A stretch of DNA of 63,267 nucleotides from contig JAISCN010000047.1 of NCBI GenBank assembly GCA_031265515.1, forward strand, positions 1 to 63,267, in the 5' to 3' direction. The number at the start of each line of letters is the position of its first letter. The stretch's first letter is position 1. The position numbers and the translations under genes were made by a program. Below the pieces are notes generated by a model. The model had not been told where the DNA came from. It ran no database searches and worked only from the letters and a program-made list of their open reading frames with translations. The DNA is from Clostridiales bacterium (GTDB lineage: Bacteria > Bacillota > Clostridia > Lachnospirales > CAMVHY01). Shown in pieces: positions 54,890 through 57,589 of this stretch.

Positions 54890-57589
54890 TTGTCACAGTC
54901 AGAAGAAATTTTTAGTGATTTTTTAAGAATTTTAAGTCTACATCAAGATAGTAGACATGCTAAAGATATTTTTGGGCAATTTATAGCAAACTTAAACCCG
55001 GAACAACGTGTTGATACTACGGCTACAGCCATCGCTAGAAATTTTATTACACCTCAAGACGCAAGTCAACTCTTAGAATCGATAACAACACACAGAAGAG
55101 CGATAGAAGTAATAAGTAATTCTCATTATTCATACTTAGAATTTAAAAAGCATCTCTATGATTTTAACGCAGATATATTCGGAGATAATATTGTCGATCT
55201 TTTAATTAATATACATAATAGTACAGTAAATGCAGACGTTTTTCTTAATTTTGATAATATAAGAGATTTTACCGGCATGGTTGAGTATTTTAGAGAAATA
55301 TTTGAAGAAACATTATCTGGTAAAAAACTTGAAGATCTGAAAAAACTTTTAGATTTATTAACAGAAAAATTAAGATTATTTGAGCATTTCGAAAGTATTA
55401 ACTATAATTTAACACGATGTGATATAGATGTGAGTGTCGTTCTTAAACCTTATGACGCCGCTGTCGTAATTGTTGAATTTTTAAAGAGAAACCCCTTATC
55501 TGAAGATGTTGAAATTATTAATAAACAAACCAGTTGTATAATCCGTCTTTATGAATTGTTGCCCAAAAATCAAATACCAGTGGAATTCAAAAATCTTATT
55601 GATCAAAGAGCAATAGAAATTGCTGAACAAACTATAAGAAGCTCACGTGATTATTATTCTTGTATTGTTTCAGTAAATTATCCTATTTTTAAATTTTTAG
55701 AACTCGGGACGCAGAGACTTTTAGTTACTCAAACTATCCCTGTAATCGAAAACGATTTAAGAGAAAGAAGATTAGATAATTTAAGTAGTTGCATTTTTTT
55801 TACAAGTTCTAATCTTTTTTATCTTTATACGCTTGAATTGAGAGAAAAATTTGCTATTCAAATGGCTGAAAATATTTTACTAGAAATACTGGGTAACCTG
55901 GAAGCATATAGTAATCTATTACAATCTTATATCTTTTATATTTTACCGTATTTACAGAAAGAAAGAATTGCTATCGAAATAATTAAAGGTATTTCAGAAT
56001 CAATATCAGATGATTTAGACGCTTTGCGTACGCTTCTTCGTTTTGCAGGACAATTTGTCATTCCGCAGTTAAAGCTCGAACGACAAATAAAATTTTATGC
56101 TCCATTGACTGAAATTATTTTGTTGAGAGTCTTAGGCAATTTACAGGGATGTAACGAATTAGTAAGATCTGATCTTTTTAGTAAGCTATTACCTAAATAT
56201 CAAAAGCAATATGCTACTCAAATGTTTAAAAGTGTTTTAGAAACAGAATCAGGTGATTTAAAAGCGTGTTTTGAATTAGACAAATGCAATAGTTTATTAA
56301 TATCTCCTACTTTCAATTTTTTACCATTTGAAGAAAAAGAAATAGTTATCATCTCAATCATTGAAATTAATTCGTCAAGAATATTAGATGATTTAGACAC
56401 ATTTCTTAGATTTGCAAAATATCTTCTTCGTTATTCACCAAGTGAACGAGCAAAAATGATTGCTACTCGAATAACTGATATTATTTTGCCAGAGATATTA
56501 GGTAATGTAAAGGCGTGTACCAAATTAGTAAGACACGAACTGTTTAAGGGAATAACATTGTCATCAGTTGAAAATAAGGAAAAATTAGCTATTGAAATGG
56601 TTAAAAAAGCTTTAGAAGCAAAGCCATATTCGGCAGAAATGATAAGTGAGATTATTTCTTTTGCAGATACTGTTTTTTTAGATGCTCTCATATTCGGTGC
56701 ATCAACATTTGCTGTTTCTGTTACTGAAATTATTTTTCCAATTGTATCAGATGATTTAACCGCGTGTAATTTATTAGTATCAAGTCGCTTTTTTCACTCT
56801 CCCTTTGTGCAAAGTAGAGAGCTTGCTACTAGAATGACTGAGATTGTCCGTCAGCAGGTATTAAATGATCCGCGTGAATTTCTCTTTTTTGTAAGATCTA
56901 TGATTATTCTTTATTTAACAACTGAACAGAGACAAATATTTCTTGATCGAATGAATGCAGATGTTTTAGAGCTAGTATTAGGCAATTTAAATGAGTGTAT
57001 TAGATTCGCGAATTCCCATTTTTTTTATTGGTTACCGCAACAACAACAAAGACTCTATGCTAGTGCAATGACTGAAAGTATTGAAAGAATTTCAAGAGAA
57101 GAATTAGATAATTCAAAAGACCTTATCCGTCTATCAAAAAGTGATATTTTTAAATTTTTATCGTACGAGAAAAAAGTGCATATATTTATCCAAATCTTAA
57201 ATCATAGTCACTATAGTGATAGTTTTTTTGACCTTCCATTAATATCTAATCCACATGGTTTACAATTTTCAAGTTATCTTGATCTAGAGGCAATGGAAAT
57301 TTGTGAAAAAGCTAGAGAGTTAGCTTTAAATCCACCTTCGGACACACCGGAAATAAAAAGATCATCGCAAATGCTTCAACAAGCTTATAACACATTGCTT
57401 GAAAATTATAGGCAAATTTTAATGCTACGTTTAAAAGGAGAAGTTAAGTACGATCTACCATCACTAATACCACAGACACAAAAGCCTTTTTTCCAAAGTC
57501 ATCCGGAGTTTTTTTCGGCAACCAATATTATTAAATTGATAAATCTCAAAATGATTAAAAACGAGGATCAGAGTGAACAATCTAGATAA
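54890..57589 (+). CDS. Orphan 899-aa all-helical tandem-repeat (HEAT/ARM-like solenoid) protein
   Basis: At least 11 repeats have a 37-45-aa period. They are anchored on [LS]-[GD]-[ND]-L-x-x-C at aa 334, 374, 414, 454, 499, 536, ~579, 620, 658, 697 and 735. Examples are ILGNLEAYSNLLQSYIFYILP, VLGNLQGCNELVRSDLFSKLLP, ILGNVKACTKLVRHELF and VLGNLNECIRFANSHFFYWLP. There is no signal peptide or TM. The 56041-56100 sample is 35% GC. Confidence 0.75.
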   Translation: MSQSEEIFSDFLRILSLHQDSRHAKDIFGQFIANLNPEQRVDTTATAIARNFITPQDASQLLESITTHRRAIEVISNSHYSYLEFKKHLYDFNADIFGDNIVDLLINIHNSTVNADVFLNFDNIRDFTGMVEYFREIFEETLSGKKLEDLKKLLDLLTEKLRLFEHFESINYNLTRCDIDVSVVLKPYDAAVVIVEFLKRNPLSEDVEIINKQTSCIIRLYELLPKNQIPVEFKNLIDQRAIEIAEQTIRSSRDYYSCIVSVNYPIFKFLELGTQRLLVTQTIPVIENDLRERRLDNLSSCIFFTSSNLFYLYTLELREKFAIQMAENILLEILGNLEAYSNLLQSYIFYILPYLQKERIAIEIIKGISESISDDLDALRTLLRFAGQFVIPQLKLERQIKFYAPLTEIILLRVLGNLQGCNELVRSDLFSKLLPKYQKQYATQMFKSVLETESGDLKACFELDKCNSLLISPTFNFLPFEEKEIVIISIIEINSSRILDDLDTFLRFAKYLLRYSPSERAKMIATRITDIILPEILGNVKACTKLVRHELFKGITLSSVENKEKLAIEMVKKALEAKPYSAEMISEIISFADTVFLDALIFGASTFAVSVTEIIFPIVSDDLTACNLLVSSRFFHSPFVQSRELATRMTEIVRQQVLNDPREFLFFVRSMIILYLTTEQRQIFLDRMNADVLELVLGNLNECIRFANSHFFYWLPQQQQRLYASAMTESIERISREELDNSKDLIRLSKSDIFKFLSYEKKVHIFIQILNHSHYSDSFFDLPLISNPHGLQFSSYLDLEAMEICEKARELALNPPSDTPEIKRSSQMLQQAYNTLLENYRQILMLRLKGEVKYDLPSLIPQTQKPFFQSHPEFFSATNIIKLINLKMIKNEDQSEQSR

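Follow-up and report, generated by a model that had tools for sequence, protein, structure and literature searches.

What kind of protein does the gene LBJ93_03270 encode, and what might that protein do? This open reading frame (ORF) lies on contig JAISCN010000047.1 of a 'Clostridiales bacterium' metagenome-assembled genome (MAG), and the window analyzed here is that whole contig, 63,267 bp in length. An original prediction, made from the DNA letters and their translations, described the 899-amino-acid (aa) product as an alpha-solenoid with a HEAT/ARM-like period, built from at least 11 copies of a ~40-residue repeat around a conserved L-G-N-L-x-x-C core. We found that the ORF encodes a genuine helical tandem-repeat protein. 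Guided by a structural model, we lean slightly towards reading this protein as a modular protein-binding scaffold that belongs to a fast-evolving, lineage-private family.

An array of eleven diverged units

A hidden Markov model (HMM) of the repeat delimited 11 units, which begin at aa 311, 351, 391, 431, 476, 513, 556, 597, 635, 674, and 712 and are 37–45 aa long. All 11 anchor residues listed in the original prediction fall inside these units, and the spacing of 37–45 residues given there agrees with the unit lengths. The periodicity is not circular, because units omitted from model building were still scored by the HMM built from the remaining ten. In this leave-one-out analysis, 10 of the 11 omitted units reached 12.5–30.6 bits, whereas the top score among 300 shuffled versions of an omitted unit was never above 7.9 bits. 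The unit anchored at aa 579 was marginal (5.8 bits versus a shuffle maximum of 5.6). BLOSUM autocorrelation across aa 201–780 gave peaks at lags of 39, 81, and 160 residues (z = 5.2, 4.9, and 3.3, respectively; shuffle maximum z, 4.4).

The copies have diverged at both the DNA and the protein level. Unit DNA copies are 60–76% identical, Tandem Repeats Finder detected no array in the array DNA, and pairwise protein identity among the units does not exceed 41% (median, 24%). On this evidence the array is old, in agreement with the original proposal, which rested on divergence at the DNA level. A further proposal, that weaker copies extend back to about aa 205, did not hold. The HMM placed only a half unit ahead of the array (Table 1), with a score of 7.4–12.2 bits depending on the HMM (in one test, 9.5 bits versus 4.9 bits for the best of 200 shuffles), and hhalign took the similarity back to ~aa 268. 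Both methods rule out repeats running through the N-domain. A six-frame HMM search found no further copies of the repeat elsewhere in the window.

A family confined to one genome

We searched a profile of the 11 internal units (alignment A1) against 1.84 billion (1.84e9) representative proteins and obtained seven strong matches besides the query (P0002–P0008; 269–1622 aa, 4–24 matched stretches each, E = 1.5e-121 to 1e-11). An exact-sequence look-up traced all seven to the same MAG, as LBJ93_00315, LBJ93_01010, LBJ93_01890, LBJ93_02910, LBJ93_03635, LBJ93_04470, and LBJ93_04475, the last two of which are adjacent; three of the paralogues are cut by contig ends. The family comprises at least eight scattered paralogues of about 4 to 36 units each, and the eight proteins total about 7,000 aa. 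Word-index homology searches, whether with the whole protein or with the family alignment, returned only the query itself. The lesson for method is that paralogues missed by a word-index search were recovered by a profile of internal repeats.

Relatives from other genomes were not found. The C-domain alignment matched nothing in 185,579 GTDB species genomes (one per species) or in JGI metagenome contigs, and P0002 had no relative in the JGI contigs. In these searches the family was restricted to a single uncultured, AT-rich Clostridia genome. The species representatives nearest to this genome (63% identity in GyrA) are likewise AT-rich Clostridia MAGs of uncultured organisms, one or more of them taken from a mouse-gut catalogue. 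Neither the 899-aa protein nor any of the seven paralogues had a significant match in Pfam-A, NCBIfam, PADLOC, PHROGs, or PDB sequences (PADLOC returned 0 families, and the best PHROGs match had E = 0.19 over 12 residues), in keeping with the earlier remark that the repeat belonged to no recognizable named family.

The paralogues differ in how recently their units multiplied. The highest unit identity within a protein is 94% in P0002 and 87% in P0012, which indicates recent unit duplication in both, compared to 41% in the 899-aa protein. One copy is broken: on a 14.7-kb contig covering the LBJ93_03635 locus (contig 1662 of the Logan assembly of run SRR14710922, hereafter L082), a P0007-like gene at 1267–4653 is split over three frames (frame 1 at 1273–1773, frame 3 at 1824–2582, and frame 1 at 2584–4653), with a truncated C-domain. 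The annotation covers its 3' part alone, as a 617–627-aa protein. Either this gene is a pseudogene or the assembly contains a (homopolymer) error. The next feature, about 1.1 kb further downstream at 5774–7168 on the + strand of L082, is a 464-aa ORF with a helix-prone N-terminal part and two C-terminal hydrophobic segments that give it a tail-anchored look; this ORF had no Pfam match and no similarity to the repeat family or to the window.

Two unit types and a super-repeat

A family-wide HMM identified 136 units across the eight proteins. When the 101 best units were clustered without supervision, two types emerged: type A (n = 48), with the consensus lp.e.rE.FA.QiIEiILPrILGNL..C.nLl.S and the short core ILPxILGNLxxC, and type B (n = 53), with the consensus Ls...KE.fAIqmiesILe.rpdDLdalldFie and the short core RPDDLxALxxF. 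By hhalign, types A and B are homologous (probability 98.7%, E = 1.5e-16). Their strict alternation in P0002 and P0003 sets the period of the family at one A-B pair, ~80 aa, which also explains the autocorrelation peak at lag 81. In the 899-aa protein the units run A B A B B A B A A A B. The L-G-N-L-x-x-C core of the original prediction marks A-type units only, at anchors aa 334, 414, 536, and 697; elsewhere it gives way to a turn of the DDL/PDD type.

The polar residues Q, E, N, and S recur at fixed unit positions. Among recently duplicated units (116 pairs with at least 55% identity), variation is spread over about ten columns, at 0.45–0.71 each. The most variable columns are 3, 8, 11, 20, 26, 33, and 35, and many of the variable columns are spaced three or four residues apart.

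Predicted fold

The fold was predicted with AlphaFold2 for aa 513–775, using an alignment (A5) of this segment with 21 non-overlapping multi-unit segments of paralogues, mostly of ~6 units, whose register was checked by eye. C-domain rows were excluded from this alignment because MAFFT placed them within the repeats. The model of aa 513–775 is regular and all-helical, with a predicted local distance difference test score (pLDDT) of 85.3, a predicted template modelling score (pTM) of 0.77, and 0 residues below a pLDDT of 50. As assigned by DSSP, the modelled unit consists of a helix of 14–21 residues (..A..M...IL...), a tight LGN/DDL turn, a helix of 8–9 residues (..C..L..S), and a helix of ~5 residues that precedes the LP... 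linker.

Foldseek searches of the model against 350,542 PDB chains and BFVD returned no match at E ≤ 0.001, and the A5 profile had no match among PDB sequences. The best PDB matches in structure were consensus TPR proteins (8chy, 9qhb), the TPR domains of kinesin light chain (KLC) and of LGN, designed helical repeats, symplekin, and transportin, at E ≥ 0.016 and query-normalised template modelling (TM) scores of 0.13–0.45. All of the top neighbours are alpha-solenoids. Together with the confident all-helical model, this supports the predicted alpha-solenoid class, with a close match to none of the solved solenoids. The HEAT/ARM-likeness that had been proposed fared less well, as the nearest neighbours are TPR-like (consensus TPR and kinesin light chain), none of them at a significant E.

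Flanking domains

The repeat units are the middle part of a three-module architecture, in which a variable array stands between an N-domain and a C-domain (Table 1). In BLASTP, aa 4–290 align with aa 177–470 of P0007 (29% identity, E = 1e-39), and the alignment continues into the first repeats. When the N-domain was compared with the repeat profile by hhalign, the match was limited to aa 268–283; aa 1–267 form a separate domain, and the last ~23 residues of the N-domain merge gradually into the first partial repeat. The N-domain had no match in Pfam or among PDB sequences. P0007 has the same architecture with four or five units and carries an extra N-extension of 176 aa that is missing from the 899-aa protein.

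The C-domain aligns with the C-termini of P0002, P0003, P0004, P0007, and P0008, with 40–45% identity to four of them. It is repeat-like in its first 13 residues only, and its profile had no match among PDB sequences. Paralogue C-domains end in a conserved basic tail, KKRESRxKSKTSELI, and the tail of the 899-aa protein (KNEDQSEQSR) is not basic. At the other end, four paralogues share a conserved MLRxQxD N-terminus.

Table 1 Features of the repeat-protein gene in the window
Feature	Position	Strand	Basis
Complete ORF LBJ93_03270, 899 aa, stop codon included	54890..57589	+	NCBI annotation "hypothetical protein"
Shine-Dalgarno-like GAAGG, 9 nt 5' of TTG start	54876..54880	+	Direct sequence reading
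N-domain, aa 1-290, helical, not repeat-like	54890..55759	+	Homology to P0007 aa 177-470
Half unit, aa 291-310 (RERRLDNLSSCIFFTSSNLF), turn and second half	55760..55819	+	Repeat HMM positions 20-39
Array of 11 tandem ~40-aa units, aa 311-754	55820..57151	+	Leave-one-out HMM, unit delimitation, A/B typing
Confidently modelled segment, aa 513-775 (six units and first C-domain helix)	56426..57214	+	AlphaFold2, alignment A5
C-domain with hydrophilic tail, aa 755-899 (FKFLSYEKKVHIFIQILNH...SFFD...ICEKARELALNPPSDTPE...)	57152..57586	+	Alignment with paralogue C-termini

Relation to known repeat families

The structural neighbours raise the alternative that the family is a diverged branch of the TPR superfamily, of the 42-aa TPR_12/kinesin-light-chain type, and that the protein is an ordinary adaptor. 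TPR solenoids (TPR_12/TPR_10; KLC 6ejn and 5ojf; designed 8chy and 9qhb) have 42-residue units, and the stacking of ~40-aa helical units is common to both. The best Foldseek neighbours of the model are TPR structures (8chy, 9qhb, KLC1/2, and LGN, with probability up to 0.99; 0.97–0.99 for the top consensus and KLC TPRs), and TPR scaffolds bind proteins, the role we presume for the present family. The only matches of the repeat profile outside the family, both weak, were P0009 and P0010, two TIR/(NB-ARC)-TPR_12 proteins from other organisms with 48-aa TPR-like units. Their match is confined to an 'ILExTPDDLEAL' junction, part of a helix-x-P-D-D-L-x-A-L-helix pattern that TPR_12 proteins share with B-type units. 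An hhalign comparison with the TPR units of these two proteins gave B-type units a probability of 80% (E = 1.4e-5, 22 columns), a statistic that is inflated because the comparison proteins were picked from 1.8e9 by their resemblance to the query. A-type units, whose ILGNLxxC turn has no TPR counterpart, reached a probability of 0.8%.

Other evidence speaks against TPR membership. With hmmscan against Pfam-A (E ≤ 10 for the 899-aa protein, E ≤ 1 for the seven paralogues), no TPR model matched the 899-aa protein, and the best trace in the paralogues was TPR_19 at E = 0.15. The Foldseek matches to TPR structures have E ≥ 0.016 and TM scores of 0.30–0.45, the modelled unit appears to contain three helices instead of the two of TPR, and the alternation of A and B units in an ~80-aa super-repeat is a further difference. 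We regard a diverged TPR origin as improbable.

The comparison with HEAT and ARM repeats was likewise mixed. The period of 37–45 aa falls within the 37–47 aa of HEAT repeats and is common to ARM/HEAT proteins such as importin-alpha, beta-catenin, symplekin (4imi), and transportin (4c0p), alpha-solenoid scaffolds that grip extended peptides along one face. The three helices per unit seen in the model would differ from the two-helix HEAT hairpin and would recall the ~42-aa ARM unit, which also has three. In the register we used, helix order is long-medium-short here versus short-medium-long in ARM, a difference that is not decisive because the register of a repeat is arbitrary. No HEAT model (HEAT, HEAT_2, or HEAT_EZ) matched any of the eight proteins in Pfam-A, and Arm models had no match in their repeats; an ARM_CPL3 trace (E = 0.16) comes from non-repeat sequence, the N-extension of P0015. 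The Foldseek matches to symplekin and transportin were weak (TM 0.33–0.43, E ≥ 0.14). The protein would work like TPR, ARM, or HEAT scaffolds, and by sequence it is a member of none of the three.

We also considered whether the units might read a nucleic-acid sequence, one base per unit, in the manner of modular TALE, PUF, PPR, OPR, or mTERF proteins. Helical units of 37–45 aa are within the range of such families, and the recurrence of Q, E, N, and S at fixed unit positions would suit such a binder. In overall plan the protein resembles TALEs and TALE-like proteins (Xanthomonas TALEs, Ralstonia RipTAL, and Burkholderia Bat), which have a helical array between conserved N- and C-terminal modules and a repeat number that differs among paralogues. 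The TALE unit, however, is 33–35 aa long compared to ~40 aa here, there is no sequence match, the hypervariable residue pair of TALEs is not present, and in this copy the units have diverged strongly from one another. More generally, models for TALE (TAL_effector), PUF, PPR, OPR/FAST/RAP, and mTERF matched none of the eight proteins even at the permissive thresholds of E ≤ 1 to 10, and no such structure was among the 50 best Foldseek PDB matches. The array is acidic (pI 5.4; K+R 53 versus D+E 60), and unit differences extend over about ten columns, not over one or two specificity positions. Across Pfam, NCBIfam, PADLOC, and PHROGs, none of the eight members has a catalytic, defence, or nucleic-acid-binding domain, which fits the original statement that the protein carries no catalytic motif. 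The acidic array, the variation over about ten columns, and the domain-free members argue against a TALE/PUF/PPR code and for a variable protein-binding surface, and we find a nucleic-acid binder very unlikely.

A putative protein-binding scaffold

Our favoured interpretation, the protein-binding scaffold, can be put as follows. The 899-aa protein would be a soluble, acidic, lysine-poor alpha-solenoid of three modules, the stacked units of which would form an extended surface. Exposed helix faces that vary by unit and by paralogue could bind a ligand, probably a protein, while the conserved terminal modules would tie every member to a shared partner, location, or export route. The interaction itself, perhaps with a host, phage, or other cell, may be fast-evolving. 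We infer a scaffold function from the model; that a ligand is bound, what the terminal modules do, and which selective pressure acts are likewise inferred from the features of the family. Conservation of the C-module, and in two members of the N-module, across arrays of unequal length suggests a common handle. Rapid evolution of the interaction is suggested by a family limited to one genome, with scattered paralogues, recent duplications, and one broken copy.

Several points weigh against this interpretation. The model spans 263 of the 899 residues, and the paralogous-repeat alignment A5 could have biased it toward an over-regular solenoid. A full-length, single-sequence AlphaFold2 prediction had a pLDDT of 44.8 and was unusable, though all-helical. 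The one-genome distribution may partly stem from poor sampling. The gene neighbourhood is not conserved, with the L082 paralogue sitting among unrelated genes, and therefore gives no clue to function.

The broken copy raises a different explanation, that the family consists of decaying or non-functional ORFs whose repeats were spread by recombination without a selected function. One paralogue is disrupted by two frame changes, three are contig-end fragments, and no homologues outside this genome were found. Yet the 2.7-kb ORF is uninterrupted in a genome of 27% GC, where stop codons arise easily; the old units (median identity 24%) retain their hydrophobic and turn pattern and a fold that is modelled with confidence; and the terminal domains are 29–45% identical between paralogues. 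We give decay scarcely any credence.

A narrower version of the scaffold proposal holds that family members are exported or translocated effectors, with the C-domain and its tail or the MLRxQxD N-terminus serving as the export signal and the array binding targets in a host or neighbouring cell. Lineage-specific expansions of repeat proteins are known in Wolbachia, Legionella, and 'Candidatus Amoebophilus', where ankyrin, TPR/Sel1, and LRR families are involved. The present family resembles them in its many paralogues within a small AT-rich genome, variable repeat number, genes broken at assembly gaps, and lack of an enzymatic domain or classical signal peptide. It differs in that the repeats of those expansions are widespread and often of eukaryotic type, whereas the present repeat is found in one genome only. 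A private, expanded family with variable repeat number is typical of effectors, and a single C-terminal module is kept across members with very different arrays.

Lysine content is a further point in favour of effectors. At 5.5%, it is strikingly low in the 899-aa protein compared to 9–15% in most neighbouring proteins, as the original prediction had noticed; the lowest value among the sampled neighbours is 7.9%, in a Pfam-less ORF at 7106–9418. The paralogues have 2.2–6.2% lysine, and this depletion occurs although an AT-rich genome favours the codons AAA and AAG. Arginine usage about equals that of lysine in the 899-aa protein and its paralogues.

Evidence on the route and the recipient is less favourable. 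The N-terminus, MSQSEEIFSDFLRILSLHQDSRH, is hydrophilic, and Kyte-Doolittle hydropathy indicated no N-terminal signal peptide or transmembrane helix, as had been predicted. The single stretch above a value of 1.6, aa 584–619, is borderline (1.79); it includes the residues E, D, S, and T and falls within helices of the modelled repeats. Since no Sec signal peptide was seen, export would have to follow a non-classical route. We saw no secretion system in the 63-kb contig or in the 14.7-kb L082, which together represent ~78 kb of the genome, and effectors are not known to be translocated across a Gram-positive envelope of this sort. The tail KNEDQSEQSR of the 899-aa protein lacks the basic character of the conserved tail. 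The relatives of the organism are Clostridia MAGs of gut-lumen type. The contig is that of an ordinary Clostridia chromosome, with genes for SpoVT, a sigma factor, MreC, PBP5, DnaK/GrpE, RF1, MnmG, ComEC, and FeoAB; the retention of sporulation and cell-wall genes indicates that the organism is not an obligate intracellular symbiont. On this evidence we consider export as effectors unlikely, though well worth keeping in view. Bolder still, and quite doubtful in our estimation, is the idea of a new exported-effector class of an AT-rich gut Clostridium, in which the C-module and tail would be a new signal, the A-B array, a solenoid without a solved relative, would have diversified for host or competitor targets, and lysine depletion would be an adaptation to a foreign cytoplasm.

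If the scaffold interpretation is true, the family would represent a new sequence family of alpha-solenoids with an unusual two-type, 80-aa super-repeat, and an uncultured AT-rich Clostridia lineage would be devoting at least 21 kb of coding sequence to private, fast-changing repeats, which are usually an interface with a host, phage, or competitor. With its strongly conserved core and confident model, the unit could also serve as a new building block in repeat-protein design. The structural class is a common one and the organism is known from a MAG alone; the family is best seen as a lead for structural genomics or symbiosis work that settles no open question.

Gene, composition, and neighbourhood

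Both NCBI and the Logan assembly of run SRR14710922 contain an identical copy of the 899-aa protein. Its gene lies between S6/SSB/S18 genes on one side and FeoAB on the other, separated from its neighbours by spacers of 372 bp upstream and 184 bp downstream, close to the ~370 and ~180 bp first given. The upstream spacer depends on an 88-aa, N/K-rich ORF at 54251–54517 on the + strand, which matched no family (its best score was a PHROG at E = 0.02). This ORF is probably not a gene, in which case the AT-rich upstream spacer (19% GC) is 1047 bp long instead of 372 bp.

The original prediction also gave a GC content of 35% for a sample of the gene and held that its composition differs from that of neighbouring lineage-specific genes. 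We measured 30.2% GC for the ORF versus 26.6% for the window. GC content at third codon positions is 19%, equal to that of gyrA, clpC, feoB, and obg, and the gene is therefore not compositionally foreign; recent horizontal transfer from a donor of higher GC content is ruled out on the same ground.

Other features of the window

Four ORFs of 191–770 aa in the window, at 7106–9418 (+), 9770–10558 (-), 10884–11459 (+), and 61642–62667 (-), have no Pfam match, and none contains the repeat studied here. The 262-aa one of these four is extreme in composition, with 15.6% lysine and 14.5% asparagine. At 3509–6538 (-), a 1009-aa ORF has a weak match to calcineurin-like phosphoesterases (E = 5e-5); positions 4001–5000 inside it have 43% GC in a contig of 27% GC and correspond to the recent repeat array that the original prediction had placed at 3980–4786. 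A 626-aa ORF at 16119–17999 (-) may encode a surface protein, judging by its Listeria-Bacteroides repeat domain (Flg_new, E = 3e-7). Three tRNA genes clustered at 25381–25692 (-) account for all Rfam matches in the window.

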